DNA from: a virus
Strand: one strand, 5' to 3'
DNA: 64,000 bases
IMG/VR virus record: IMGVR_UViG_3300027782_000032
Coordinates: 32,001-96,000 of that record
Positions 1,470 to 54,932 of the stretch are shown here, piece after piece. The notes beneath the pieces were generated by a model that saw nothing but the letters and a program-made list of their open reading frames with translations, ran no database searches and was not told where the DNA came from. Both the position numbers and the translations under genes were made by a program. How positions within the stretch are numbered: the stretch's first letter is position 1; each line of letters begins with the position of its first letter.

Positions 1470-2683
1470 AAAGTCGGAGACTCGGCCATTACCTGTAGCT
1501 TGTCACATAGAGACTGAAACTCGAAGTACGCATGCCCTATAATCGACCTTGTGCTTTCTAGTGGTAGGTAGTTGTCAAGAACGTGATTCAAAAATGGAAC
1601 CAGCTTGTTTTGAAGCTTTATAGGTCCTGAGTCAGGCATCTCGATTTCTGCTTCTTCTAATGAAGGAATACTAACCCTGCCGTAATCTACAGACTCTATG
1701 CTGTCTAAAGACATCACCATTCTATAGGCTTGAAGGTTTCTCCAGTAGAAGTCGGTACCGCCAATAATCCTGCTGTTATAGTCCAGCTGTCCGTCTATTA
1801 CTATCTGCCGGTAAGCTATGTCAGCTTCCTTAGTGGTTATAGCTTTAAACACAACCTTGTACTTACCATCAAACATTTCATATGATTTCTTAAACCTTAT
1901 ACTTCCTAAAATAGATTGAACAAAATCAAACTTATCTTCAGGAGTTACGTCAGTTAAGTCTTCTCTCTTAAGGTCCCACCCGCAGTGAGGGCAGTTAGGC
2001 ATTAAGCTAATAGCAGACGGCTGGTATTCCTGAGCTGGAGCAGTGTATTCCACGTGAGGTCTTGGCTCCTCTTTATAAGTCTGAGGCCTAGAAGCTTCAG
2101 CTGCAGGTGATGCTATGTCATTTATGAATGATAAGTTGTTTTCTTTGTATACTGGCTTGGCTGCTTCAGGTTTAGTGGAGACGTCTCCACTAATAACAAC
2201 AGGTTCTTCTTTTTTAACTATCTCCTCTTTTTTAACAGGCTCAGGCTCATTAGGCTTAAGGTGGTCTGGTAAAATTGGAGGTTTGAATGGGTTAGCCTTA
2301 TCTACTGACCTCTTAAAAGCATCATCATGCATCTTTTTTAACGAGTCGTATCTTTCCTTGTCAGACACTATCTCGTTTAGAAGCGCCATACCCTCTTCTA
2401 TTTGCCTTCTTTGCTGAGCTGAAACTTTATCAAGAGAAACAGGAGTTTTAACTTTTTGAAGTAGGTTTCTATAGGCCGCCATATCCTGCTCAGATGCCTC
2501 TTCCTCTACTGCAGGTTTGACTTCTTCTTTTTCAGGCTTAGTTGGTGATACCTCTTCTATTGCTTTTTGAAGCTCTTCAAGCTTTCCTTCTTTTTGAAGC
2601 ATTAAAGCTTTTATTTCAAAATCCGTAAGAGAAGACAGCTTAGCCTTACCAGCTAGCGGTGGGTCTTTCTCATTCTCACTCAT
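1451..2683 (-). CDS. Hypothetical tail/baseplate assembly protein (acidic disordered N-half, CPHCG motif)
   Basis: 410 aa ORF between spike and tape measure genes; CxxC motif; function from position only. Confidence 0.35.
   Translation of the reverse strand: MSENEKDPPLAGKAKLSSLTDFEIKALMLQKEGKLEELQKAIEEVSPTKPEKEEVKPAVEEEASEQDMAAYRNLLQKVKTPVSLDKVSAQQRRQIEEGMALLNEIVSDKERYDSLKKMHDDAFKRSVDKANPFKPPILPDHLKPNEPEPVKKEEIVKKEEPVVISGDVSTKPEAAKPVYKENNLSFINDIASPAAEASRPQTYKEEPRPHVEYTAPAQEYQPSAISLMPNCPHCGWDLKREDLTDVTPEDKFDFVQSILGSIRFKKSYEMFDGKYKVVFKAITTKEADIAYRQIVIDGQLDYNSRIIGGTDFYWRNLQAYRMVMSLDSIESVDYGRVSIPSLEEAEIEMPDSGPIKLQNKLVPFLNHVLDNYLPLESTRSIIGHAYFEFQSLCDKLQVMAESPTFWKAIE
2172..2193. repeat. Dispersed palindrome copy 1 (22-bp perfect: TTAGTGGAGACGTCTCCACTAA)
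   Basis: Perfect inverted repeat, 16-bp core at 2175-2190; read as SGDVST in the minus-strand CDS. Confidence 0.95.
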
Positions 2684-2702
2684 AGCATCCCCAGTCCTTT
2701 AG

Positions 2703-5354
2703 TTAGCCTATGATCTTGTAAAAGCCATCAGGAACGTTTCTGATCTCCGTCCCAGGGTTCTTGTTATCCTCTATTTCGTAATTTGGAACAAGGTCATAAA
2801 ACTTCAAATCAACCCATCTTAATGCGGTTGGGTCTATCCACGCTCCATACCCAGGCCAAGGGTATGTCAAAGATCCAAGATAAGGTACAGGCTTTTCGAG
2901 CCAGCCTTGAGCACTTCCTCCAAGAAGCCTATCTCTTTGCTGCCACCTGCTCTCGTATATTCTGAATCCGTCTGCTTTGTATCCGCTTGTAGAATCGAAG
3001 TAAAACGCCACCTTTCCCCATCCGCCGCTAGGATTAGCATCGCCTATTCTTCCAGCTTCCCTAAACGGAAGGTTTATCGCATTCTCATACGCATCAGCTC
3101 CCATGTTTACAACCTTATCTTCTGCTTCCCTTATCTTTTCAAGTTCTTCATCTGCTTTTTGAGCTGCAGTCTGTCCGTTACCTACGTCTTGGCTTAAGTC
3201 GCCTACAAAACCGCTATAGTCCTTAGCTAGTGCTGTGGCTATATGGCCTGTAGTAGATATGAAGTGGTTTCTGCAAGCCATGTATCCAAGGCATGCCATT
3301 GTACCTGTAGAGTAAGTTGGAGACCCTAGTAAAGTGCTTTGATTACTAAAGACATTTGAACCTGAGTAATTTCCGTCTGAACCAAAGAAATCGTACCTAG
3401 ATTCTGTCATAAAGTTAGCGGTTACTCTAGCTGACAGAACTATATCCCCAGCCGCATTACCTCCTGCATCTATAACTATGTTGCTGGACGCGCCGCTAGA
3501 CCCAGACCTTATGTAAACCTCCATCTCTGCTAGTGTGCTCACCTGACCTGCTGATTTTAAAACTATACCCTGCTGGCTAGGACACTTGTTCTCTATAAGC
3601 AATTTACCTTCTGACTTGCCGTTACCTGCTAGCATGAAGAGGTCTTTTTCAGCTTTAATTCTTACGTCTGCATCGCTAGAAGATATATCAACTGAATGCT
3701 TGGATCTTAGACAAGTTGATCTACCAACAAGAGATACTAGATTCCTCCCTGGTCTAAGCTGAATATCTCCAGGACAGCTCAACTCTATCGAGCCTCCTAC
3801 CATCCTTATCTCTTCACCGTTAGGTCCAGCTATTACGATAGTACCGTCAGGTAATATCTTAAAATAAGACATTAGCTTGTTATACTTAGCTTTGTATCTG
3901 TGATCTACCGTTTTTGTAACTGTACTGGCAGGGTCTATGTACCACTGGCCAGACAACTGTCCGTATGATGGGCTCTCTTCTTTCTCTGGAGGCTCAATTT
4001 TATTAAAGTCATTTTCATGGTACTTAAATGGATGCTCGTTTCTCCATGCAAACGCGTACGCTGTGTCGTCATCAGCGCACAAAGATCTTCCTGGATATGA
4101 CTCAGCGTCTATGGGCGTGTCAGAAAGTCGGTGGTCTTTTCCTGACCCAGATAGCCCTGAAAACTTATAGTTCTGTCTAGTATCGCCTTCCAGTTCGTTT
4201 TCTATTCTAGCTTTTCTAACTGGCGGCTTGTATAGCGGAGAGTGCGCTATAGTTATTCCTTGAGATGACCTAATGTGATAGTTACCGTCTAGTGAAAGGT
4301 GTTGCTCCCACACTGACTCTCCGGTAGCTCCTCCTAGCTTGTTAACTCCTGACGCTCCGTCAGGTGGTAGCCTTAAAGTAGTTCTAAATCCTTGACCAAG
4401 GTATCCTGTGTACGTCTGTAGTCTATAGTAGGGAACTTGATCATCCTTTTCCTCTGAGCTTACTATGTCAGCAGCTCCTAGATAAGGCCTGTCAACCTGC
4501 TCGTCTCTAGCTGATATAGTCTTTGAAGATGGAGTACCTAAATCAAACGCTCCTACGCCTTCCCAAGAGTAAGGAGTAGTGCCTACGTACCCTACAGCTT
4601 CTCCGTTATCGTCAAAATGCTCTTGCTCGTAGCTGCCTGCACGTATTTGAATGTTATGACCTTGCATTCTTGCTAGCTGGTCGAAGTGGAACGACCAGAA
4701 GCCGCAGTTTTCATCTGCTTTGATAAATGCCATGAATGGGTCTATAAACACTGAGGTTCCTGTCTCGCACACCCAGCCCCTCTCACCTACTAGAGTAGAA
4801 TCAAGCGGAGCTCCATTTGAAAAGTTTACAAGGAACTCAGGATCTATAGCTGACATAAGAGTATTGGTTGATTCTGAAGACACTGAATGGCCAGAAGCCA
4901 TAGTGATGGTCTCTGCAAGCACATCAGCCACGTCATTCATTATTTCAGGGTCTGAACCTAATATTGTGCCACAAGCGGTGTTGTCGTTGCTTATGAAGTA
5001 AACTTTAGTGTGAGGCTGCAAAGATCCTATTCTTCTAGCCCCCAAAGGAGACTGAGACGAATCAGAAATAAGGCTGCACATTAGCGGAGCACCACCGTCG
5101 AAGGCTATAACTTTATAGCATCCCCAAAAAGGCAACGCCTCTGCTATTACACCACACCTAACTAGACTTGTATGAGATAGGTCTAGTTTGTGTGAAGTCC
5201 CTGTAGAGTATATATCGCTGTCGTTTTTAGACGGCCTAGACAAAGGGTTTGTAGACCCAATATAGGCTGATGTGTTACCTATAGAGCTTTCAACGTTGCT
5301 TATGAATTTATCAAAAAACACACCAAAGTTATTTTCGTTTGAAGATTCAGCCAT
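2703..5354 (-). CDS. Baseplate central spike protein (gp5/VgrG-like)
   Basis: 883 aa; short beta-strand repeats (DGTIVIAGPNGEEIRMVGGSIELSCPGDIQL...) like spike beta-helices; follows tube genes. Confidence 0.5.
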   Translation of the reverse strand: MAESSNENNFGVFFDKFISNVESSIGNTSAYIGSTNPLSRPSKNDSDIYSTGTSHKLDLSHTSLVRCGVIAEALPFWGCYKVIAFDGGAPLMCSLISDSSQSPLGARRIGSLQPHTKVYFISNDNTACGTILGSDPEIMNDVADVLAETITMASGHSVSSESTNTLMSAIDPEFLVNFSNGAPLDSTLVGERGWVCETGTSVFIDPFMAFIKADENCGFWSFHFDQLARMQGHNIQIRAGSYEQEHFDDNGEAVGYVGTTPYSWEGVGAFDLGTPSSKTISARDEQVDRPYLGAADIVSSEEKDDQVPYYRLQTYTGYLGQGFRTTLRLPPDGASGVNKLGGATGESVWEQHLSLDGNYHIRSSQGITIAHSPLYKPPVRKARIENELEGDTRQNYKFSGLSGSGKDHRLSDTPIDAESYPGRSLCADDDTAYAFAWRNEHPFKYHENDFNKIEPPEKEESPSYGQLSGQWYIDPASTVTKTVDHRYKAKYNKLMSYFKILPDGTIVIAGPNGEEIRMVGGSIELSCPGDIQLRPGRNLVSLVGRSTCLRSKHSVDISSSDADVRIKAEKDLFMLAGNGKSEGKLLIENKCPSQQGIVLKSAGQVSTLAEMEVYIRSGSSGASSNIVIDAGGNAAGDIVLSARVTANFMTESRYDFFGSDGNYSGSNVFSNQSTLLGSPTYSTGTMACLGYMACRNHFISTTGHIATALAKDYSGFVGDLSQDVGNGQTAAQKADEELEKIREAEDKVVNMGADAYENAINLPFREAGRIGDANPSGGWGKVAFYFDSTSGYKADGFRIYESRWQQRDRLLGGSAQGWLEKPVPYLGSLTYPWPGYGAWIDPTALRWVDLKFYDLVPNYEIEDNKNPGTEIRNVPDGFYKIIG

Positions 5355-14406: not shown

Positions 14407-15336
14407 TTACGCAAAGTCAACACGGGCAACTGCGTTGGTATTGCCGATGGCACCACCAAGAGTTTCATAGGCAAAGAATTCTAACATGTAGGCCTTTCGG
14501 TCCACATAAAGAGTTGTATCTTCAAGAATGAACGACTTGCCCAGGAACTTAGGATCAGCGAACATAAACACGCTGTCAGTAGGAACCAAGTCCTGCTTGA
14601 TGGAGATGATCCAACGAGCATTCATGAAGTTCTGTTCCGACCAGCCGTTTTTGAATACGTCCTGACTGAAGTCACCACCCATTTCCTCACGACCGAATTT
14701 CATCAGTTCGCGAATGGTAAGGTTGTTGACCAAGCAGGTACCTACTTCAAGTCGACTGATAGTTCTTGGAAGAATCTTGAAAGAGTCTTGCAAGGTGTCG
14801 CGGGTGATACCACCGTAGATGGTTTCCCACTGCACTAAGCCTGACTGAGTTACAGTAGTATCTGCAGCTCCGCCCATGGCAGCATTACAAGCAGCAATGA
14901 ATTTACGATCTTCTTCCGCTAACATATCCTTAATGGCATTATCCGAGAGGATCTGCCTGATATCCATGCGGTAAGTACGAAGTTCATCTACGTCCTTTGT
15001 GAATCGTGGGGTCACGATACGGTCAAAGGTTACTCGGTATTTCTGTCCACGAACATAAAGGTTCATAGGAAGAGTATTGAAAGGAATCGAGATTGCTGCT
15101 GGAGAATCAGGTTCACGTTCAATAATCTTTACAGGCTTATCAGTGTCGACTTGTTGATCAAGGTCGTCATTGCTGACCTGTACTGGTGGAAGAATTCTTC
15201 GGTAGAAGCCTTCTTCACGCATCCTGTACCTGGTGTAGTCGACCACTGCATCGAGTGCTCGCTTTTCCATTCCAGGAGTTTCAAGGTAGCTAAGGAACGT
15301 TTCGTTCGTCAGCTTAGTTTCATTATCGTAAGCCAT
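14407..15336 (-). CDS. Major capsid protein (HK97-fold, inferred)
   Basis: 309 aa downstream of protease/scaffold/decoration genes and followed by a terminator; EEDRKF and C-terminal ETLGGAIGNTNAVARVDF resemble capsid P-domain elements. Confidence 0.75.
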   Translation of the reverse strand: MAYDNETKLTNETFLSYLETPGMEKRALDAVVDYTRYRMREEGFYRRILPPVQVSNDDLDQQVDTDKPVKIIEREPDSPAAISIPFNTLPMNLYVRGQKYRVTFDRIVTPRFTKDVDELRTYRMDIRQILSDNAIKDMLAEEDRKFIAACNAAMGGAADTTVTQSGLVQWETIYGGITRDTLQDSFKILPRTISRLEVGTCLVNNLTIRELMKFGREEMGGDFSQDVFKNGWSEQNFMNARWIISIKQDLVPTDSVFMFADPKFLGKSFILEDTTLYVDRKAYMLEFFAYETLGGAIGNTNAVARVDFA

Positions 15337-22824: not shown

Positions 22825-25302
22825 TTACACGTTGTTGTCGTCTAGGCTGATGCCTTCGTCAGGGTACGAGTCAATAGTCTTCTGCTTGAGGAACAATAAC
22901 AAGTCTCCGAGCTGTTCAAAAGAGTTCCTAAGATTGTCTTCAAGCTCAGGAATGTCTTTCTTACCATATCGGTCTTCGAACTTGTCTTTGTGCCAATAGA
23001 AACTAAAGAGAATACGTCCAATCTTGTCTAGCCCGCCCATAAGGTCACCCAAGTGGCGATCTACCATTGTGTCATCGCGAACAGACTTGATTAAGGTACC
23101 GATCATAGAAGTATCAAACACTTCTTTCTGACCAGACTGAGCAGCGTTGTAGCCGATAGCCATAGTATTTGGATCAGGAAGCCTTGGGTCATATACGGCT
23201 GAGTTAGCCTGAAGAGACTGGCTGTTCATCGCAGGCAGAGACTGTTGCTGAGGGTATGACGACTGCACACTTCCTAACAACGTAGACTCCATACCTGTTG
23301 GAGGAGTAGGAAAAGCAGGAGCAGAGGTAGTGCCCTGCATTGATTGGTCTATTTGGTCGCCTGGAGCTGCTGACTTTATTAAGTCGCCTGCATCCTCTTT
23401 GACCGGCTTGTGTACTCTATAGTTAGCAACTTTGTTTTGCTTAGCTTCTTCCAAAATACATCGAGCTTGCTTCTCACGCAGAGCAACGTCTCGTACTAGA
23501 TGGATAAGCGCTTCCTTGGGTTCTAGAACTCTACCATTAACAGATACCTCAGAGCCAGTGTGCCTGACGTTTAAAGAGGCTGTCTTTTGATAGATAGCGT
23601 GCTGAAGGTCAGTAAGATTTCCAGGGACGATAGAGCCGTCACCTGTGCAACAATCACCTGACAACTTTATCATTTTAAAATTACCAGGAATATAAAGGTC
23701 TCCCTTAATAGCTTTGATACGGGAGCCTGGTTTATCAGTTACGTACAGCTTACGTCCGCCGCCTATTACATTGTTACTGTAACCATGGTCGTCACAACCA
23801 TCGCTTACTTTAGATTTTGGAAGATAGGACGGCTTCTGCTGTGAAGCAGAGTCGTGATAAAGTACTCTGTAGTTCTTAGTGCCGTCAGACGCACTGTCTG
23901 TCTTAAGTACTTCAAAGGGAACGCTAGCGTCTCCACTTTCGCTGACTGCCATGTAAATACCGCCCTTTGTTAACGAGGACGATTCTGGAAGCTTCTCAAA
24001 AAACTTAGCATAGCTGTCACCGCTAGTTTTGCTTTCTGGTGAGTCTTGTCCGCCATCTCTTGGTGGTCTGGTAAACAGATTACCTGGATGGCTGTTGATC
24101 CAACTTTTTTCTCCCTCGTAGTTAACTACTGTGGCGAAGTCTTGCCTTCCAGAAGGTCCGTGAGGCATTAGGAAGATTACAGTCTTTAACATTGAGAAAG
24201 GAGAAACAAGAAGGTCGTAAACTCCAGTAGTTGGAGGATTTTCTATTGAGGTTGGCTCTTGAATTCTGTAAGCGATAGATGCTTCATCTTTGGTTCTAGC
24301 ATCCCTAAAGATAACTCCATCAGTAAGAAGCTTTTTCTTATCTGGTTCTGAAGAATCCATAATGTCTTCTGAGCCGTTAGATGAAGAATTAAAGCTTCTT
24401 ACAATAATAGTAAGAGCCTGCTTCTCTTGATGTCTTAGCTGTACGGTGTCTTCAGCGAGAACGCCTGGCTCTGTTAACGTGCCAAGCTTGGCAACTGCAT
24501 CTTTAAGAAAGTCATTACCGCATGTACTATCAATAGCTTCTGCCATCTTAGGAAACCGTTGACAGATATCGATAATGCCTTTTACAAGCTCTCGGTAAGC
24601 ACTTTTACTATGAGAAGCTTCTTTATTTAGAAATGATTTTAGAGTAATTGTCTTAGCGAACTTAGGATCGTGCACAGGGTTAGAGCAAGCGAACTTAGCG
24701 AAAGCTCTTACACCTTCCATCATCTCATCAGAGTCATCAGCAGGCTTGTTAGCCGAAGCGAACTTAGCTGGAGGTCTGCTAAACGCTTGAAGGTCAGGAG
24801 TAAGGAAGCCAAGACGGCCCATGTTCTGGTCGGTCTTCTTGCCAAGGCTGGCTGGCTTACGGCGTAGAATGTAGTTAAGCCAGTTTTCTTTAAGAGGTAC
24901 GAATTGATCTTGGTCTTTAAGATAAAGCAGCTCATGACCCTTAAGGTCGCCATTAATAAAGAACACTGGCGCATACAGCCACTGGCTGCCAACTTTAAAA
25001 CCAAACAGACCAACTGCTTTGGTGTTGTCTTCGTTGCGCTCCATAAGCTCAAAGCCTACTTCGTAGTCTAGAAGTCCTGGGGCTTTGTCTTTTAAATAAG
25101 CGTGTGCAAGATTGCTGAAAGCCTGTTCAAACTGAGTATCATTGCCTTCGCCTCCAAGTTCAGCTTGCTTAACAAGCCCTTTAACTAAAGAAGGTAACTC
25201 AAGTAAAAACGACTTATTGTTATTGCTCATATTTCTTAACCTTCCATGGCTTAGAAAGTAACACAGAGCCATTATGCTCTTTATTGGTTCACTCTGCAAC
25301 AA
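22825..25302 (-). CDS. Large hypothetical head-associated protein (start may be ATG 25230)
   Basis: 825 aa; VKQAE, AKFAS, EKQAL, QKTAS, IKSAA motifs. Confidence 0.55.
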   Translation of the reverse strand: MLQSEPIKSIMALCYFLSHGRLRNMSNNNKSFLLELPSLVKGLVKQAELGGEGNDTQFEQAFSNLAHAYLKDKAPGLLDYEVGFELMERNEDNTKAVGLFGFKVGSQWLYAPVFFINGDLKGHELLYLKDQDQFVPLKENWLNYILRRKPASLGKKTDQNMGRLGFLTPDLQAFSRPPAKFASANKPADDSDEMMEGVRAFAKFACSNPVHDPKFAKTITLKSFLNKEASHSKSAYRELVKGIIDICQRFPKMAEAIDSTCGNDFLKDAVAKLGTLTEPGVLAEDTVQLRHQEKQALTIIVRSFNSSSNGSEDIMDSSEPDKKKLLTDGVIFRDARTKDEASIAYRIQEPTSIENPPTTGVYDLLVSPFSMLKTVIFLMPHGPSGRQDFATVVNYEGEKSWINSHPGNLFTRPPRDGGQDSPESKTSGDSYAKFFEKLPESSSLTKGGIYMAVSESGDASVPFEVLKTDSASDGTKNYRVLYHDSASQQKPSYLPKSKVSDGCDDHGYSNNVIGGGRKLYVTDKPGSRIKAIKGDLYIPGNFKMIKLSGDCCTGDGSIVPGNLTDLQHAIYQKTASLNVRHTGSEVSVNGRVLEPKEALIHLVRDVALREKQARCILEEAKQNKVANYRVHKPVKEDAGDLIKSAAPGDQIDQSMQGTTSAPAFPTPPTGMESTLLGSVQSSYPQQQSLPAMNSQSLQANSAVYDPRLPDPNTMAIGYNAAQSGQKEVFDTSMIGTLIKSVRDDTMVDRHLGDLMGGLDKIGRILFSFYWHKDKFEDRYGKKDIPELEDNLRNSFEQLGDLLLFLKQKTIDSYPDEGISLDDNNV

Positions 25303-47030: not shown

Positions 47031-47486
47031 TTAAGCGCCCTTCCACCACTCTGCAATATTTATAACTGAATGGTTTTGAAGTTCAGTGGATACGCGATAG
47101 CTGTCGTAATCAAAGTGCTGTGTAGAAGTCTCAAATATAACAGAGTCCTCTAACGCAAAAAACTGATGAATATGCCCAGGCATGACGTGCCAAGCCTGGC
47201 CTGGGTGTAACAACTTAGAAAGTACAGGCACGTCAGAAGTAGAGCTTTCAGAAGCTAAAGTAGTAGCCTCAGGTCGATCAGAGTAAAGCATCAACACCTT
47301 ACCAGAAACTACGGTAAGGGTTTCTTCTTTAATCTTGTGATAGTGAAAGCTGCAGTACTTAGAGGCACTCACTCTAAGTATTTTTCCACAGTAGGCTTCG
47401 TTGTTTACAATCCAGACCTCGCTTCCCCAGCTCTTGGGAACATAGGTCATGTGTTCAACTAGGCCGCTGAGTCTATTCTCTTTCAT
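47031..47486 (-). CDS. Cupin-domain protein (sugar isomerase-like)
   Basis: KSWGSE...SFHYHKIKEET...PGHIHQF. Confidence 0.75.
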   Translation of the reverse strand: MKENRLSGLVEHMTYVPKSWGSEVWIVNNEAYCGKILRVSASKYCSFHYHKIKEETLTVVSGKVLMLYSDRPEATTLASESSTSDVPVLSKLLHPGQAWHVMPGHIHQFFALEDSVIFETSTQHFDYDSYRVSTELQNHSVINIAEWWKGA

Positions 47487-48133
47487 CTCTTAGCCTCTGC
47501 TTTTCTAATAGCCGTCATAATTGATTGAAGAGAAGGATGACGCACAATCATGCTCTCATCAAAACCTACATAACCTACACAGTCTAGATTTTCAAGAGCA
47601 TAAGCGAACTCAGCAAAGCAGTTCCTTATTCTAAGATCGCTCTGCTCAGGATCACCACAAATGATTAGCTTGCCGTTCTTACCTAGCCTAGAAGTGAATA
47701 GCTTGAGCTGCTCCCACGTGCAGTTCTGAGCTTCATCGAGAATGGCAACGCAGTCATCAAAAGTTCTTCCTCTCATAACTGCTAAAGGAATAATCTCCAT
47801 AGACTTCATAACTTCTTTAGGATTGATAGTGGTGATTCTACGTAATACGTCCTCAATAGGAGCAACCCAAGGAGCTAGCTTGTCATTTATGTCGCCAGGC
47901 AAGAATCCCATCTTCTCACCGCACTCAACCATAGGTCTTGAAAGTATCATACGGCGGACCTTACCGCCTAAAAAAGAAGTTAAGGCCATCTTTACTGCTT
48001 GGTGTGTCTTACCTGTCCCTGCAGGCCCTGTTAGGAACAGAATATCTTTTTTTGGAAAAAGCTTTTCTGCTAATTTTTGTGCCTCGTTAATGGGTAAAAG
48101 TACGGGGTTGAGATCCTTAGGCAACTTGGCCAT
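47483..48133 (-). CDS. phoH: PhoH family protein
   Basis: GPAGTGKT, MGFLPGD, MRGRTF, LDEAQN, ICGDPEQSD. Confidence 0.95.
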   Translation of the reverse strand: MAKLPKDLNPVLLPINEAQKLAEKLFPKKDILFLTGPAGTGKTHQAVKMALTSFLGGKVRRMILSRPMVECGEKMGFLPGDINDKLAPWVAPIEDVLRRITTINPKEVMKSMEIIPLAVMRGRTFDDCVAILDEAQNCTWEQLKLFTSRLGKNGKLIICGDPEQSDLRIRNCFAEFAYALENLDCVGYVGFDESMIVRHPSLQSIMTAIRKAEAKR

Positions 48134-48186: not shown

Positions 48187-48202
48187 TTGGAGACGTCTCC
48201 AC
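48187..48202. repeat. Dispersed palindrome copy 7 (TTGGAGACGTCTCCAC), intergenic
   Basis: Begins 2 nt after the TAG of 48205-49113. Confidence 0.9.
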
Positions 48203-48204
48203 TA

Positions 48205-49113
48205 CTACCTATTCTTCTTAAGCTTGGATACCCCAGGTCTTGCAGCCTTAGACTTTTTCTTATTATTAGCTAAAGGTTTTGTTACTTTAGATACTGAAGC
48301 CTTTTGTTTATCAACTATGTTAGATAAAACTTTACCTGCAGCGCCTGCTGCGGCGTATGCTTCTATTGTTTTGCGGTCCAAAGAGCTATCTTTAGAGTTA
48401 AGCTTTGCAAGTACGTCTGCTTTAATTATTTGCGATTCAGTACTAGGTCTAAGTCCAAAAGCAACTATTTGATCTGAGTTGGAAGCAGTTTTGTTGCTTT
48501 GGGCAGATACAATCTTACTTACTAGTCCTTCTGCCGCTCTAACAGGGGCTAAAAACTTGTCCTTATCCGCACCTTTGTAAGCAACAGCAAGCATGTTTAT
48601 ACGATTTATTGCATTATTGCCTTCCGAATCGAGTCCACCTGTTGTGGCACGAGCCAAGGATTTTGAGTATGTTGCAATAAGCTGAGGCATCTCGTTCTGG
48701 TAGTTTCTGTCTCTAGTAGCTCGGTACTCGGCTTCAGCCTTTTGTGTTAGCATATCAAACTCCTTTTTTTGAGCAGCTATCCTTGCTGCTTCTGCTGGAG
48801 TAGGGCCGCCTCCGAATCCGAATGTGCGTCCTGGTGGAATACCGCCATTTCTAATCATAGCATCATTATACTCTGCTGCGCTTCGCTCCTGCTGACGTAA
48901 TCTATCAGCTTGCTCTACCTCAGCCATGTGCTTACCGTATGGAATGTCGTTTGCTCTCTTAAGCTTTTCATTGTCAGAAGCAACTGCTGCTGCAGATCTT
49001 GCAGCAAAATCACGATCCCACTGCCGCGAGTTCCTTTCTCTAAGCGCTTGGTCTTGGTACTCCATATATTGCTTCTGCTCAGCCGCAGTTGTCGGCGTAG
49101 GCCATCCTGCCAT
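48205..49113 (-). CDS. Hypothetical protein with basic C-tail (...VSKLKKNR)
   Basis: 302 aa; SD AAGGAGG. Confidence 0.65.
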   Translation of the reverse strand: MAGWPTPTTAAEQKQYMEYQDQALRERNSRQWDRDFAARSAAAVASDNEKLKRANDIPYGKHMAEVEQADRLRQQERSAAEYNDAMIRNGGIPPGRTFGFGGGPTPAEAARIAAQKKEFDMLTQKAEAEYRATRDRNYQNEMPQLIATYSKSLARATTGGLDSEGNNAINRINMLAVAYKGADKDKFLAPVRAAEGLVSKIVSAQSNKTASNSDQIVAFGLRPSTESQIIKADVLAKLNSKDSSLDRKTIEAYAAAGAAGKVLSNIVDKQKASVSKVTKPLANNKKKSKAARPGVSKLKKNR

Positions 49114-49161
49114 AGTAACCTCCTTACTTTTATCTAGTCACCTAAAACTTAGTAAAGTAAT

Positions 49162-49944
49162 TTACCTTCTTCTATTTTGCTTTTTAATCTTGGCTATGCC
49201 CTTAGCAAAAGCCTTCTTAGCCTTTTCCTTTGCCTTTAGCTTGGCTGGTGGCTTCTTTACTTTTTCTGCAGCGGTCTTCTTATTAGTTAAAGCGTCAGCA
49301 AGCTTTTTTGAAGCTTCATCAGCTGCCTTTTTATTAACGGCTATTATGTCTGCTTTATTTTTATCGGTCTGAATACCTCTGTAGCTTCTACACTGTGCAG
49401 ATTGAAAGATAGCAGTGTTGACTAAGTTAGGTGAGTCGCACTTACCAGTGGCAACAGCGTTTGCTATGAGGTTAGGTAAAGAATTAGCAGCAGCCTTCTG
49501 TACTTCAGCCGCCGCTGCAGCGGCGGCGGCGTCTGCTGCTTCTTTAAGCTTTTGGTTGCGCGGTTTGTTCCTTTCAAAATTAGCAGCTATTTTATCGGCT
49601 ACTGATTTGTCATAAGCCAGCCTGTCGGCAACAGTGGCCTTAGCAATAGCCTCTCTAGCAATGCCTTCTGTGTCACCGCAATAGCCGCCGTTCTTTTGGC
49701 ATGATTCTACTGCAAGACCACCAAGCCTTGGATCAAAAACAGGAGGAGTGTATGGGACAATAGCTCCGATGCCAGGATTGGTGGAGTTAGCGCTAGGCTG
49801 CCTATTAATGGCTCCAGACAATTGAGTAACTGCTTCCCTTGCGTCTGAAGCAGCTCGAGATGCGTCTTCGTTAGCCTTCATGTTAGCTTGTACAGCTTGT
49901 TGTTGTTGCCAGTAAGGTAAATTTCGATTCAACATAAATGCCAT
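49162..49944 (-). CDS. Hypothetical protein with basic C-tail (...AKIKKQNRRR)
   Basis: 260 aa; SD AAGGAG. Confidence 0.65.
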   Translation of the reverse strand: MAFMLNRNLPYWQQQQAVQANMKANEDASRAASDAREAVTQLSGAINRQPSANSTNPGIGAIVPYTPPVFDPRLGGLAVESCQKNGGYCGDTEGIAREAIAKATVADRLAYDKSVADKIAANFERNKPRNQKLKEAADAAAAAAAAEVQKAAANSLPNLIANAVATGKCDSPNLVNTAIFQSAQCRSYRGIQTDKNKADIIAVNKKAADEASKKLADALTNKKTAAEKVKKPPAKLKAKEKAKKAFAKGIAKIKKQNRRR

Positions 49945-49954
49945 TTTATTCTCC

Positions 49955-50845
49955 TTATTTTCTTTTCTTGGGTTTAGCTAACACCTTGTTCTTTGATTTT
50001 GCTTTAGACTTAGCTATAGCAGCTTCAACTGTATCCAAAAGCTTTTTAGTTTGAGCTTTATTTAAGTTAGCCTTCTTAGCAGCGCTTCTAGCGTCCTCTC
50101 TAAAAGCAGTAGCTCCAGCTACATTAGCTGCTGCGCTAGTACCTGCTACAAAGTTAGCAGAGGCTACAAACTTACCTATGTCAAATGGATCAGGCCGTGG
50201 CTCTTTAGGCGGCACTACGTTAGGCTTGCTATTGCATCTACAATGCCTAGTTGGCTTAGGATTAGCTGTAGGTAAAGGATTAGCTGTAGGTAAGGGATTA
50301 GCAGTAGGTAGGGGAGCTACTTGAGGCTGCTCTATTTCATACTGTGTAAACTGATCTGTACCTTGTACAGGTTGCTTTATAGCAGGCTGTCCTACTACTG
50401 GCTGAATAGCAGTTGGTGCAGGGCTGCCAGGGTCAGAACTGGTAAACGCATGAACCCACCAATCTGTTCCAGCTCCATAATCGCCTACGTTGTAACCTCT
50501 AGCGTTTTCTATAGAGGCTCCACCGCTAGACCTAACAGCAGAGTAAGGAGGCTTAGAGCCCATGGCATAATTAGGCATATTAGTAAGGGCAGCAGGAGGT
50601 ACAGCGAATGGCTGATTGATTGAGCCATCTCCCCACTTAGCTGTGGATCCGCCTGTTACAACTAAACCTTTAGAGGTTACAGCCTCTACACGGTAAACGC
50701 CGTCTAGGCTTTCATTCCAACCTGATATACCTGCTCTTTCAAATTGTCCAAGAGATATAACATCTCCTTGTTTAAATGGAACTCCGTTAGAACCTGTTGT
50801 AGTACCACTGCCTTTATTTGAAAATGTAATAATATTATATGACAT
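49955..50845 (-). CDS. Hypothetical protein with basic C-tail (...AKPKKRK)
   Basis: 296 aa; PLPTAN x3 repeat. Confidence 0.65.
   Translation of the reverse strand: MSYNIITFSNKGSGTTTGSNGVPFKQGDVISLGQFERAGISGWNESLDGVYRVEAVTSKGLVVTGGSTAKWGDGSINQPFAVPPAALTNMPNYAMGSKPPYSAVRSSGGASIENARGYNVGDYGAGTDWWVHAFTSSDPGSPAPTAIQPVVGQPAIKQPVQGTDQFTQYEIEQPQVAPLPTANPLPTANPLPTANPKPTRHCRCNSKPNVVPPKEPRPDPFDIGKFVASANFVAGTSAAANVAGATAFREDARSAAKKANLNKAQTKKLLDTVEAAIAKSKAKSKNKVLAKPKKRK
50259..50312 (-). repeat. 18-bp tandem repeat x3 (PLPTAN)
   Basis: GGATTAGC(T/A)GTAGGTA.. units. Confidence 0.85.
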
Positions 50846-50849
50846 AGTC

Positions 50850-50891
50850 TTATCTCCTATCGGTTTTTCTTTTTAAGTTTAGAAACAGGAG
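50850..50891. repeat. 42-bp exact direct repeat (tail codons, stop and SD), copy A
   Basis: Identical to 51758-51799. Confidence 0.9.
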
Positions 50892-51753
50892 CAGGCTTTT
50901 TATTTACTGGAGGCTTAGGGGCAGCCAATGCATTAGACTTAGCTGGCTGAGCATTCTTAATAGCCTTAGAAACTTTTGACTTAGCTTTTTTTGAACCTTT
51001 ATTAACTATAGGAACAAAGCTAGCGGTGTCTCCTTCTTCAAGGCTTTGAAGGTCCTCTGCCTCTACAGTTGGAATCGGCGCAGGATTAAATCCCAAGGTT
51101 TTATTTTTTTTAGCTGAACCCACACGGTTTAAAGAAGCTGAAGCTTTTGAGCCGCCTTGGTATGCAGCTTCAGCAGCTGGGTGCATGCCAGGAGCTTTAT
51201 AATCAGGCTCAACCTTGAAACCTAAATTCTTAATCTTTATCTCTAATCCAGCTATTCCTCCAGCTAGGTTGCTAGACTGTTGTCGAACAGCGGACCTAGC
51301 TGCCAGTAGTTTTCTTAAGTTTTCGGCTATGTACGCTTTAGCCTGTTCTTGTGGAGTTGTACCTTTTACTCTAGCCTCGTCTATGGTAGTTACACTGTTG
51401 CCGTAGTCTCCGTCCTGTCCTACGGTAAACGTCTCAGTAATTTCTTGTTTGGTCAGTCGGTCCACTCCAAGGACGTCGTAAGAGTCTTTAATTTGCACTG
51501 GTATGCCAGCCTCTAGTAGTCTATAAAGCCGGTCTAGCCTATCAAGCGCAGGCCTGAATCGGCTCATCTTTTGACGCGCAACAGCCAACTGACTGTTTAA
51601 GTCTGAAACTTGATTAATGGCCGTAGGTGAGGATCTGTTTAGCCCCTGCCTTAGCCTAAGCACGTATAGAGCCTGTGAAGCTTCATTAATAGCATCTTGA
51701 TCTCTTGCGTATGGGTCATTTACGATAGCTTGTAGCCTCATTTCTTCGTCCAT
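50857..51753 (-). CDS. Hypothetical protein with basic C-tail (...PVSKLKKKNR)
   Basis: 298 aa. Confidence 0.65.
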   Translation of the reverse strand: MDEEMRLQAIVNDPYARDQDAINEASQALYVLRLRQGLNRSSPTAINQVSDLNSQLAVARQKMSRFRPALDRLDRLYRLLEAGIPVQIKDSYDVLGVDRLTKQEITETFTVGQDGDYGNSVTTIDEARVKGTTPQEQAKAYIAENLRKLLAARSAVRQQSSNLAGGIAGLEIKIKNLGFKVEPDYKAPGMHPAAEAAYQGGSKASASLNRVGSAKKNKTLGFNPAPIPTVEAEDLQSLEEGDTASFVPIVNKGSKKAKSKVSKAIKNAQPAKSNALAAPKPPVNKKPAPVSKLKKKNR

Positions 51754-51757
51754 ATTA

Positions 51758-51799
51758 TTATCTCCTATCGGTTTTTCTTTTTAAGTTTAGAAACAGGAG
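51758..51799. repeat. 42-bp exact direct repeat, copy B
   Basis: Identical to 50850-50891. Confidence 0.9.
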
Positions 51800-52706
51800 G
51801 CCTAGCTACTTTTTTATTTTTCTTTTTTGATACTACAGGAGTTTTACCAGCTGGTCCCCTTGCTGAGCCTGATTGAGAGACTACAGCGTTAGCTAGTGCA
51901 TCGTATACTGGGAAAGCCTCTTTACGCTGGGCCGTAATAATAGGCTTAGCGACTGCGTCTATCGCTGCGGCTTGATTGTCTCTATTGGTCTGATCGTCAA
52001 GCTTGGCGTTGTTAGCTAAAGCCCTACGTGCTATCGCCGCCGCTCGCATATCTGCAGGTTCATACGACACAGTCCTAGTATCTTTACCTACTTGCGCTAA
52101 GTTAGCAGCTGCCTGCGCAGCAAAACCTTCAGAAGAACCAAGAGTTGAAGGACCGCTGTAATAATTAGTAAGCTGGACTTCGGCACTTGAGTTCCACGTA
52201 GTTTCAAGAGGATGAAGAAGGCCCTTTTTAATCATGTCCCTTCGTATTGCTTCTTTCATCTCTGGAGTGGCTGTACTAACTATTTCTGCAGCGTAAGCTG
52301 CAGCAGGTTTTGCAGCAATTTGATTTGCATTATTAATTAAAGCTTTAGCTTTATTGTCTCTATACCGTTGAGCTACTACAGCATTTGAATTACCCCTTTC
52401 ATAAAGTTTTATAGCATCCCTTTGAGCTCCTGTGCATTTAGTAACACCAATAGGCGCATTGAGGTTGGTATCACAACTAAACCCAAGCTGACGAGTTCTT
52501 ACATCTAGGAAATAATTAGAGTTTAAAGGGCCACTATATCGCAGCCTAGTTTCAGCAGCACTAACAGCATTAGCGTTTGCTATAGCCAGCTCAAATGGAG
52601 TTAGCCCTCTACCTGTAAAACCATTGGCCGGTTTAGAGTTAGCGTAGCGTAGTCGTTGTTCTTCTGCTGTTCCAAATATCCGCTCTCCAAGTGTAGGCTC
52701 AGCCAT
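51765..52706 (-). CDS. Hypothetical protein with basic C-tail (...PVSKLKKKNR)
   Basis: 313 aa; SD GGAGG. Confidence 0.65.
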   Translation of the reverse strand: MAEPTLGERIFGTAEEQRLRYANSKPANGFTGRGLTPFELAIANANAVSAAETRLRYSGPLNSNYFLDVRTRQLGFSCDTNLNAPIGVTKCTGAQRDAIKLYERGNSNAVVAQRYRDNKAKALINNANQIAAKPAAAYAAEIVSTATPEMKEAIRRDMIKKGLLHPLETTWNSSAEVQLTNYYSGPSTLGSSEGFAAQAAANLAQVGKDTRTVSYEPADMRAAAIARRALANNAKLDDQTNRDNQAAAIDAVAKPIITAQRKEAFPVYDALANAVVSQSGSARGPAGKTPVVSKKKNKKVARPPVSKLKKKNR

Positions 52707-52707
52707 G

Positions 52708-53292
52708 TTATCCTCCTACTTTTGTTGGTTTGTCTTCAAATAGGATCATAGAGATAGACTCTACAAACGCCTCTGTAACGGGCCTCTCATTCTTCCATAT
52801 CGCTAAGCCAAACCGCCTGTAAGGTCTTCCAGTCTTATCCTTATCATGCCACCTGTCTTCAAAGTCTTTCCAAGGTATATAGCCCCTAGCGTCATCTAAG
52901 GCTGGGTCTTCGAAGTAAACGTTATTAGCGTCGTAGTCTATTGCTATAACGTAGTGGCCGCTGTCTCCAGCTAGCTCAGCAGGCGTAGAAGCCCAAGCCT
53001 GCACAGCTATGATTACTGGATGGCCTTCTTCTAAATAATACTTAAGTTCTTGGTTGGTCATTCGCTCGTGCCATACCGTGCTGTAACCTCTTGCCTTGGC
53101 AGCCTTGCTAAGGGCCATAGGAGTGGTTCCGTCAACAGGATCGGACTTAAGCTCTGCAGCTAAAATAGACTCCTCGATGAACTCGCCCCAGTAGCCAAAG
53201 ATAGCGCTAAGGGCCGCGGGTCCGCACGTATAACAGGACTTCTGACGAGCGTCAGGTAAAGGTATTCGATTTCCTCGCAGGGTCCTGTCCAT
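52708..53292 (-). CDS. C39-family cysteine peptidase
   Basis: RQKSCYTCGPAAL (Gln/Cys), SGHYVIA (His), YFEDPA (Asp). Confidence 0.85.
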   Translation of the reverse strand: MDRTLRGNRIPLPDARQKSCYTCGPAALSAIFGYWGEFIEESILAAELKSDPVDGTTPMALSKAAKARGYSTVWHERMTNQELKYYLEEGHPVIIAVQAWASTPAELAGDSGHYVIAIDYDANNVYFEDPALDDARGYIPWKDFEDRWHDKDKTGRPYRRFGLAIWKNERPVTEAFVESISMILFEDKPTKVGG

Positions 53293-53408
53293 GTATGGCT
53301 CCTTGCGTGAGGGGTTAAGATGTAAAGCAGCTAAATGCCACTAATATATAATAACCCAGCTATCTCACGGTAGGAACCTATAAAAACTAATTAAACGTAA
53401 GTCCTTAT

Positions 53409-53654
53409 CTAGTCTTGCTTTAAAAGCATATTAAGGAACTGCTTGTTAGCAGATACAACTGGTTCAGGCCTGCCTAGGGTGGCATTACCTTGACCTCTTA
53501 CATCAGCGTTACGCCAAGTCCAGCACTCGCCTGTGTCATCTTGAAACACAACCCACATAAGATCGTGATCTTGGCTGTAGTCTATTATGACATGAGCCAT
53601 GCCCTTGCCTTTGATGGTTATAACTGGAATAGGAGGATCTAGCTGCAGCATCAT
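53409..53654 (-). CDS. Small hypothetical protein
   Basis: SD AAGGAG at 53661-53666 supports start 53654 (MMLQLDPPIPV...), not 53681. Confidence 0.6.
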   Translation of the reverse strand: MMLQLDPPIPVITIKGKGMAHVIIDYSQDHDLMWVVFQDDTGECWTWRNADVRGQGNATLGRPEPVVSANKQFLNMLLKQD

Positions 53655-53665
53655 AACTAACTCCT

Positions 53666-53681
53666 TTGGAGACGTCTCCAC
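53666..53681. repeat. Dispersed palindrome copy 8 (TTGGAGACGTCTCCAC), intergenic
   Basis: Overlaps the G of the upstream TAG and abuts the downstream SD. Confidence 0.9.
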
Positions 53682-54292
53682 TATCTGTTTTTCTTTTTAA
53701 GTTTTGCCACTGAACCTCTTTTACCAGTAGATTTTTTCTTAAGGCTAGATGGCTTGGTTCCAGCAGCTGGGGTGGAGGCTGGAGTGGAAGCTGAGCTACT
53801 TCCCCTTTGTACAGTAAAAGAAGCCTCAAGCTTTTGCCTTAAGTTTTTAAGACGTCCAACGTCTGCAGTGAGCTTTGACTTTATACCATCATACCCAGCT
53901 GGCATGGGGTAGCTCCTTTTATAATCACTAATAAATTGATTAAGCTCCTTAAACATGGCTTCACTTTTAATTTTACCAAAGTTAATTGTGCTAGTGGGCA
54001 AGCGACCACCATTTTTAAGGGCTGCCGCCTTCTGTTCTATGGTCACAGGAGGAGCATAGCCAAACTTGAGAGCTTCTAATCTAGATATAGTGTGCAATCT
54101 TGACTCATAGTCATAAACTATAGCATTGCCTGCTTTTATACTGCTAACTAGAGCTTGACCCTCAACAACGTGTGCAGGCGCTGCACCCTTAATTGCATGA
54201 CTAAACTCAAGAAGAAGACCGGCTATAGCTCTCGTTTCGTTTTCAGCAGCACTACTACCGCCGCCTGATGCCATTTGCATAAAATTAGTCAT
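53681..54292 (-). CDS. Hypothetical protein with basic C-tail (...VAKLKKKNR)
   Basis: 203 aa. Confidence 0.65.
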   Translation of the reverse strand: MTNFMQMASGGGSSAAENETRAIAGLLLEFSHAIKGAAPAHVVEGQALVSSIKAGNAIVYDYESRLHTISRLEALKFGYAPPVTIEQKAAALKNGGRLPTSTINFGKIKSEAMFKELNQFISDYKRSYPMPAGYDGIKSKLTADVGRLKNLRQKLEASFTVQRGSSSASTPASTPAAGTKPSSLKKKSTGKRGSVAKLKKKNR

Positions 54293-54305
54293 AGTATAGT
54301 CTCCA

Positions 54306-54932
54306 CTATCGGTTTTTCTTTTTAAGTTTAGCTGCAGCTTTTGCTTTAGCTTTAGCCTTTGCTTTTAACTTAGCAGGCTTCTTTCCACTGGCTTTGGATG
54401 TGCCTAGCTCCCTTGCAACTTCATCGAAAGTAACATTAGATCTTGCAGTACCGAAGTTATCGGTGGCAATACGCTTTTTTTCTAATTCAAGACAGGTCTT
54501 ATCAACTGATCTATTTTGTGCATCACGAGCACCTGCGCTGCAAGCCCTACTGTAAGCATCACTAAGGGATTTATCAGCATCTCTACGGCGCGCTAGTATA
54601 GCTTGCTCTGCAGCTAATTCAGCTGCTTTCTTATCTTTATCTGCTTTAGCCTTAGCCGTATCCTTCAGGTACTTTTGAAGTTCGGCGTTGTTTTCTGCTT
54701 TAGCTTTGACGTTACGGTTGTAATCTTGGCAGTCGGTTACTGTTGTGTTTCCAAGACATCTTGAATAACCGAGGCGCTCCCTTTTCTTGTCATCGGTACC
54801 GCATATATCAACAAGTCCAGCAATCTGACCCGTACCCTTACCCTCTATGCATGGCCTAGATGTAATAAGGTTAAGCATCTGTGATCGTTCCCATAGCTGT
54901 TGCGCTCTTGGGTCATTACTAAATACTGCCAT
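54306..54932 (-). CDS. Hypothetical protein with basic C-tail (...AAKLKKKNR)
   Basis: 208 aa; KAKAKAKA run. Confidence 0.65.
   Translation of the reverse strand: MAVFSNDPRAQQLWERSQMLNLITSRPCIEGKGTGQIAGLVDICGTDDKKRERLGYSRCLGNTTVTDCQDYNRNVKAKAENNAELQKYLKDTAKAKADKDKKAAELAAEQAILARRRDADKSLSDAYSRACSAGARDAQNRSVDKTCLELEKKRIATDNFGTARSNVTFDEVARELGTSKASGKKPAKLKAKAKAKAKAAAKLKKKNR

Follow-up and report, generated by a model that had tools for sequence, protein, structure and literature searches.

An island of dissimilar orphan proteins sharing a replaceable basic C-terminal tail in an uncultured freshwater jumbo phage

The DNA analyzed here, a stretch of 64,000 nucleotides from the virus record IMGVR_UViG_3300027782_000032 (the window), carries an array of seven dissimilar proteins that all end in a basic tail. 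This tail is real, selected at the peptide level, replaceable and confined to the array locus, and the array is a hypervariable accessory island of unrelated, fast-evolving orphan proteins whose bodies turn over quickly. The array consists of nine tightly packed minus-strand open reading frames (ORFs) at 48205-54932, which encode the seven tailed proteins, a C39 peptidase and one small protein; along the gene strand the order is two tailed genes, the small ORF, the peptidase and then five tailed genes. The 92,955-bp IMG/VR record containing the window (CheckV completeness 45%) encodes a fused beta/beta-prime RNA polymerase, an SNF2 helicase, a ribonucleotide reductase and PhoH. The closest cultured relative is Salmonella phage Arash (polymerase identity 31%), and the array host is an uncultured, large freshwater, Arash-like jumbo phage.

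An earlier note, made from the letters of the window, had listed seven tagged ORFs, and all seven exist on the minus strand with C-termini exactly as quoted there (Table 1). The net charge of the last 45 residues was +12 to +15 in all seven, and the whole proteins are Ala-rich with an isoelectric point of 9.8-10.2. The dissimilarity of the bodies claimed in the same note was also borne out, with no blastp match between any two bodies at E < 1e-3 and an hhalign probability of 3.5% or less in all 21 pairs. An origin of the bodies as plain paralogs, which the note had named as the result that would speak against it, was rejected as neither method found a relation. Searches of the seven bodies in Pfam, PHROG and NCBIfam returned nothing, and two bodies searched in the ESM Atlas gave no usable match. 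A search of 1.84 billion representatives gave only 6 clusters related to tagged protein 3, and for tagged protein 7 a single homologous cluster came up in the 8,000 candidates scored out of 5.8 billion clusters. The first 190 residues of tagged protein 4 are 51% identical to a protein of the relative L008 that ends in RKLARLKAGR. The family of tagged protein 5 has about 15 members, all at the array locus; PLPKPKGRR and AKLKKKK are examples of its tails. This was the sole tagged protein modelled: AlphaFold2 (AF2) predicted a beta domain joined by a disordered Pro-rich linker to a helical hairpin, behind which comes a disordered tail whose last 7 residues had a predicted local distance difference test score (pLDDT) below 50. 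Fold searches with this model found generic helical hairpins only and no informative match. One array family, in L007 (10617-11525), L008 (12468-13373) and L020 (11855-12772), is without the basic end; its proteins finish in a Pro/Ala-rich stretch followed by the Cys motif ..YCGYGCI[LI]R...

Confinement of the tail to the array was found with two scans. A scan of the 93-kb record for ORFs of at least 40 aa with at least five K/R in the last 10 residues matched six of the seven array ORFs and nothing else. The second scan, which covered the relatives as the earlier note had proposed, required a net charge of +9 or more over the final 30 aa together with at least three K/R among the final 8. Of the 511 ORFs in four related records, 478 kb altogether, 16 passed, and 15 of these lay no more than 5 kb from the C39 gene. 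Nearly all such tails in G001, a 181-kb relative that is 88% complete, were within the array, and every traced homolog of the tagged proteins was located between the DUF5661 gene and PhoH.

The tails are also better conserved than the proteins that carry them. Between the window and its relative L049, 133 of 140 positions in the last 35 aa were identical compared to 761 of 926 in the bodies (p = 3.6e-5). The relatives L009, L043 and L046 write the same tag peptides with different synonymous codons, and some relatives have tails of Pro/Arg encoded by GC-rich codons. Selection therefore acts on the peptide and not on an A-rich RNA. The end of the tag differs between genomes: it is of the KLKK(K)NR type in the window and L049, KPKGR[RK] and PRARR in L009, L043 and L046, [TP]-[KL]-LKGK(K) in L007, L008 and L020, and KLKRPR[KR]R in L016. 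A core of basic-basic-Pro-hydrophobic-x-Lys-[Leu/Pro]-Lys-basic is common to all of these types. Replacement of the tag is seen in P0106, an ortholog of tagged protein 3 with a body identity of 78% and an identity of 25% over the last 12 aa; its tag, KPLPKPKGRR, is the same as on unrelated proteins of other genomes. Taken at the level of sequence, these results support the tail as a functional module shared by dissimilar proteins, which would fit an address tag on varied cargo. The tag-directed cargo system proposed in the earlier note thus stands in so far as the tail is a selected, replaceable, locus-confined module on unrelated proteins, but its second element, release by the peptidase, is weakened (see below).

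The bodies differed markedly between close relatives. L049 is 97-99.5% identical to the window in the flanking genes, with C39 and PhoH at 99.5%, yet three of the seven array genes are missing from it, one tailed gene is new, and the remaining array genes are shared at 75-93% identity. The ratios of nonsynonymous to synonymous substitution (dN/dS) in this comparison were 0.18, 0.46, 0.81 and 1.15 for array genes (0.46 for tagged protein 6, 0.81 for tagged protein 1 and 1.15 for tagged protein 7) and 0.02-0.19 for flanking genes (C39, 0.02; DUF5661 protein, 0.17; small ORF, 0.19). The L049 ortholog of tagged protein 1 is 76% identical with an identical tail, and that of tagged protein 6 is 75% identical with 33 of 35 terminal residues identical. 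G001 is colinear with the window at a median ortholog identity of 68% (C39, 93%); a match there exists for just two of the seven array genes, at 27% and 51% identity.

Four tags of the window, together with the stop codon and the Shine-Dalgarno sequence (SD), form a near-identical repeat of 24-49 nt directly 5' of the next start codon. The repeat at 50843-50891 is 96% identical to a copy at 51751-51799, and weaker copies are located at 53667-53715 and 54292-54340. As the shared DNA includes the SD downstream of the tag, recent gene conversion is indicated, and the repeat is a plausible site of cassette shuffling. In every array-bearing relative a second element, the palindrome TGGAGACGTCTCCA, directly follows the final gene of each sub-array, and in array-less relatives a degenerate form, TGGAGACGTTTCCA, follows directly after the C39 stop codon. 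This placement with and without the array indicates that the tailed genes were inserted just upstream of palindrome copies. Further copies of TGGAGACGTCTCCA were found across the genome near 60775, 39487, 31384, 25451, 18137 and 2188.

Table 1. Coordinates in the window of the array, its flanking genes and the associated DNA elements, listed along the gene strand
Feature	Position	Strand	Length (aa)	C-terminus	Remarks
DUF5661 protein	54956..57247	-	763		Upstream flank; Ala/Gly/Ser-rich; Pfam DUF5661 7.6e-9
Tagged protein 1	54306..54932	-	208	AAKLKKKNR	First gene past DUF5661 protein
Tagged protein 2	53681..54292	-	203	VAKLKKKNR	Not present in L049 or G001
Palindrome TGGAGACGTCTCCA	53667..53680				Directly past stop codon of upstream sub-array
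Small ORF	53409..53654	-	81		No tail; no known family; ATG start at 53654 per relatives
C39-fold cysteine peptidase	52708..53292	-	194		Stand-alone; no tail; no signal peptide; assigned by Pfam and fold
Tagged protein 3	51765..52706	-	313	PVSKLKKKNR	Begins 1 nt past C39 stop
Tagged protein 4	50857..51753	-	298	PVSKLKKKNR	
Junction repeat, 49 nt	50843..50891				Tag codons, stop codon, SD and next gene's start codon
Tagged protein 5	49955..50845	-	296	AKPKKRK	
Tagged protein 6	49162..49944	-	260	AKIKKQNRRR	
Tagged protein 7	48205..49113	-	302	VSKLKKNR	Last array gene
Palindrome TGGAGACGTCTCCA, second copy	48188..48201				Past last array gene, before PhoH
PhoH-like ATPase	47483..48133	-			Downstream flank; 80-99.5% identical in relatives
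Major capsid protein	14407-15336		309		Homolog of Arash gp226, 31% identical; 33 kb from array

The reading that we prefer, at a probability of roughly 0.4, is that the tail is a polyanion-binding address tag, probably associated with DNA or the head, and that the bodies are internal or co-delivered proteins like the internal proteins of phage T4. From the composition and disorder of the tail we infer a polyanion as its target, with DNA rated the most likely; packaging in the virion and any role against host defence are further steps that we infer. The tail is a disordered Lys/Pro/Ala/Arg-rich module of about 30-45 residues with a short, genome-typical end motif. It would bind the DNA of the phage itself, both in the full head and during entry, with the bodies acting as T4's diverse internal proteins do. 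The tag-stop-SD junctions would be the places where bodies are gained or lost and where reshuffling occurs, and each retained body would keep its tail or would have received the version typical of its genome.

The T4 internal proteins (IPI, IPII, IPIII and Alt) are likewise unrelated basic proteins, variable among relatives, with only a short terminal tag in common. The T4 tag is N-terminal and about 10 aa long, whereas that of the array is C-terminal, polybasic and 30-45 aa long. The capsid-targeting sequence of T4 is removed at a defined motif by a serine protease of family S77, the gp21 prohead protease; in contrast, no cleavage motif is visible at the array tags. A profile of the S78 prohead protease was not found, and the S77 profile had no match in the phage but none in control genomes either, so that this result is uninformative. 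The lysines of the T4 internal proteins contact the packaged DNA (PMC3012670). A further precedent is Arash, whose particle contains 116 proteins including its RNA polymerase (PMC10585845). No description of C-terminal polybasic tags on phage protein arrays was found in the literature. The array can be regarded as a variant of a known theme, the shared terminal tag on diverse phage cargo. If the preferred reading is true, 'many cargos, one tag' arose more than once in phages, as a C-terminal polybasic tail here and as an N-terminal leader in T4. The tag would also single out fast-evolving orphans as the proteins with which a widespread group of uncultured freshwater phages is likely to act on its hosts, and an address tag of this kind would be a short peptide with which proteins could be loaded onto phage DNA or into the heads of large phages.

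Several results weigh against this reading. The presumably packaged RNA polymerase subunits of the array host are without such a tail; head entry therefore does not require it. DNA binding by itself leaves the uniformity of the terminal motif within a genome unexplained, and this uniformity hints at a specific partner; neither the capsid protein (97% identity) nor C39 (93%), however, varies with the tag. Part of the tag uniformity in the window genome also traces to recent gene conversion, to judge from the shared tag DNA. The high dN/dS of the Ala-rich, partly disordered bodies may mean low constraint rather than an arms race. Finally, neither the DUF5661 protein nor any ORF of the block has a homolog in Arash.

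The peptidase inside the array has the papain-like C39 fold. It matched Peptidase_C39_2 (PF13529; 2e-14, 54.7 bits with a cut-off of 24) and Peptidase_C39 (PF03412; 8.5e-10, 39 bits with a cut-off of 22), and its catalytic set is intact (Gln17 for the oxyanion, Cys23, His113 and Asp129). In an alignment of 45 homologs the His and Asp were invariant, and the Cys was present in all phage members with Ser in its place in 11 archaeal ones. The AF2 model had a pLDDT of 80.6. The closest solved relative by sequence was the prophage lysin PeiR (PDB 8z4h; 1e-7), and Foldseek placed PeiR first (9e-10), followed by ComA, LahT and PCAT1, with a probability of 1.00. The small ORF is conserved as well, at 73-96% identity in relatives, so that both non-tailed members that the earlier note placed inside the array are real. 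The array C39 is like ComA, LahT, PCAT1 and PeiR in its fold, its Gln/Cys/His/Asp set and its Pfam matches. Unlike the enzymes of double-glycine leader systems, it stands alone without an ABC transporter, and its neighbours share a C-terminal tag and are without an N-terminal Gly-Gly leader; unlike PeiR, it is without cell-wall-binding repeats. No ABC transporter was found in the C39 neighbourhood of any relative, and the seven tagged proteins have no common N-terminal leader.

C39 is a core gene, and with the small ORF it appears to be part of a conserved framework into which the island is inserted. A sister clade of phages whose C39 is 62-68% identical has the order DUF5661, the small ORF where present, C39 and PhoH, and the 13-20 kb examined contain no tagged gene. 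The small ORF is kept in most array-less relatives and is missing from L011, L012 and L015. Co-occurrence of peptidase and tag, which the earlier note had proposed to examine, is one-sided: tags cluster within 5 kb of C39, but C39 is also found in sister phages without the array. Gene order and conservation suggest that C39 is probably not dedicated to the tagged proteins and that its link to the array is positional. The comparison of relatives shows that adjacency to a peptidase gene is no evidence of processing by the peptidase. A general rule that places C39 beside tagged proteins was also rejected, as the remoter phage C39 homolog L040 has no tagged neighbours and the archaeal homologs are chromosomal. 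Beside another C39 homolog, in the 735-kb uncultured phage LR756501.1 (L006), acidic DPYGEE-tagged genes were found; this genome has 109 copies of DPYGEE(N/D)W, mostly at the C-termini of small unrelated ORFs and clustered genome-wide. The archaeal contigs L041 and L042 carry Methanobacterium-type chromosomal C39 homologs with Ser for the nucleophile Cys, near genes with pseudomurein-binding repeats and Peptidase_C71/transglutaminase domains.

That C39 has a separate job has about an even chance in our judgement, and this is compatible with the tail as an address tag. It could be a cell-wall endopeptidase acting as a lysin or entry enzyme, for which the best match among solved proteins, PeiR, argues both by sequence and by fold, together with weak PHROG endolysin matches. 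No Phage_lysozyme, SLT, Amidase_2 or M23 domain was detectable in the 88%-complete G001, although this is weak evidence as most proteins of the phage, even the capsid protein, escape Pfam; C39 also has no signal peptide, and no holin or spanin is nearby. Alternatively, it could mature proteins with N-terminal leaders encoded 6-10 kb upstream. A leader L1 (MNR[LF]EKAAAFGxMMGK) begins three ORFs in G000, where a fourth has MNRLEK only, and four ORFs in G001, and a leader L2 (MR[SN]FNKLANLH..FFKR) begins one ORF in G000 and three in G001. L1 was also found in the array-less L018, 6.6 kb from its C39 gene, and C39 is among the best-conserved proteins of the genome (93% compared to a median of 68% in G001). 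Neither leader, however, finishes in Gly-Gly, and L011-L015 have no leader-bearing ORF within 10 kb of the C39 gene. L1 and L2 represent a second tag system and are a more conventional candidate substrate for C39. The leader ORFs are located at 61233-62411 and 62408-63058 of the window and at 947-1378, 1858-2460 and 2478-4196 of G000, which lie outside or over the end of the window; both leaders were found in L009, and the leader ORFs are otherwise unrelated to one another.

The tailed proteins could also remain unpackaged, as intracellular effectors tethered by a tail similar to histone H1 or AT-hooks to the host nucleoid, the replicating phage DNA or ribosomes, which we consider unlikely. 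The Lys/Ala/Pro-rich composition and the elements PKPK, KGRK and RPR resemble known minor-groove-binding tails, and the disorder of the array tails is a further likeness to histone H1, SPKK and AT-hook tails. The island is also located among metabolic and auxiliary genes, about 20 kb from the head-tail module and 33 kb from the capsid gene, and the presumably packaged polymerase is without such a tail. Unspecific binding of nucleic acid, however, does not need a uniform end motif within a genome, and H1, SPKK and AT-hook tails differ from those of the array in having no fixed end motif common to unrelated proteins of one genome. No AT-hook or H1 family matched in Pfam at E ≤ 0.1 despite the similar composition, although short motifs are poorly detected by profiles.

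The earlier note had suggested that the tail routes the cargo and that the embedded C39 may release it. In its full form, with C39 cutting off the tail to release or mature the proteins, this model would have parallels in the T4 prohead protease, which acts on capsid-targeting sequences, and in the adenovirus protease, which acts on precursors of core proteins; to this model we give a poor chance. Five tagged genes downstream of C39 are probably co-transcribed with it as one operon, because the first begins 1 nt past the C39 stop codon and the gaps between them are 10-48 nt. Tagged genes are found on both sides of C39 in every array-bearing genome, the catalytic residues are intact throughout the phage clade, and a small residue (Ser/Ala) often precedes the K-L-K core in the window genome. 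However, the sister clade (in the 13-20 kb examined) and L040 have C39 without tagged neighbours, and the enzyme is 93-99.5% identical across genomes with different tags; a change of tag from KLKKKNR to KPKGRR goes with only about 8 differences in its sequence. None of the tag boundaries has a Gly-Gly, Gly-Ala or Gly-Ser, and no other common cleavage motif precedes the tags. The C39 enzymes ComA, LahT and PCAT1 are known for the removal of N-terminal leaders and not of C-terminal tails. Release of the tagged proteins by the peptidase, as put forward in that note, is thus weakened. Adenovirus combines basic DNA-associated core proteins with the cysteine protease AVP and a basic C-terminal peptide, pVIc, that slides on DNA. 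The likeness to the array would lie in basic virion proteins associated with DNA, in a cysteine protease encoded by the virus and in a short C-terminal peptide that is basic and has a role on DNA, but AVP belongs to family C5 and has defined cleavage motifs.

A more elaborate scheme is conceivable, if a long shot, in which the array represents a loading system that evolved independently. Its orphan effectors, a rapidly changing set, would be brought onto the phage genome or into the head by a replaceable polycationic C-terminal tag and would reach the host together with the DNA. The tag would match one genome-specific receptor, and the conserved C39 would free the effectors after delivery.

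Docking of the tail, as a protein-binding loading peptide, on an acidic patch of the procapsid interior, the scaffold or the portal is improbable. Encapsulin cargo carries a C-terminal address peptide behind a flexible linker for a shell of HK97 fold, with a hydrophobic or Gly-rich motif, and in P22 the scaffolding protein contacts the coat protein electrostatically through a basic C-terminal helix-turn-helix. The array resembles these systems in its C-terminal tag behind a flexible linker on unrelated, varied cargo, and the uniform motif within a genome suggests one specific receptor. It differs from them in that its genes are not beside a shell gene, with 33 kb between array and capsid gene, the motif is long and polybasic, not hydrophobic or Gly-rich, and the capsid protein is constant (97% identical) between genomes with different tags.

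That the tails have no protein function and are by-products of junction signals, either an A-rich initiation region or a recombination repeat, is highly improbable: the junction repeats and the changes of gene content at tag junctions would fit, but relatives keep the peptides with other codons and some tails are GC-rich Pro/Arg, the basic stretch of 30-45 residues is far longer than any initiation region, a tail is also present on the final gene of each sub-array, and other tightly packed genes of the genome are without such tails. As a sole explanation it is largely refuted, although the repeat may still drive cassette shuffling, and an effect of A-rich mRNA as the only cause of the tails is ruled out by those encoded as GC-rich Pro/Arg.

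The flanks of the array are conserved in relatives in the order DUF5661 protein, small ORF, C39 and PhoH. The DUF5661 gene was upstream of C39 wherever the flank was recovered, with nothing or only tagged genes and the small ORF between them. Orthologs of the DUF5661 protein vary from 398 to 763 aa, and their constant parts are the N-terminal ~150 aa and a C-terminal hydrophobic segment. The neighbours of the array are metabolic and auxiliary genes (PhoH, a cupin, methyltransferases and ribonucleotide reductase), and the head-tail module follows some 20 kb later in the direction of the genes, from around window position 25000. The major capsid protein matched no Pfam family; the 97% identity given above is between the window and G001, for which the median ortholog identity is 68%. 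A blastn search of the region against phage records gave no match, a scan of IMG/VR for the exact tag DNA of KLKKKNR and KPLPKPKGRR gave 0 hits, and a scan for sigma-70 promoters and terminators gave counts not above chance expectation. The ribonucleotide reductase of L016 (16178-19519) has 1113 aa compared to about 750 aa elsewhere and contains intein and LAGLIDADG domains.

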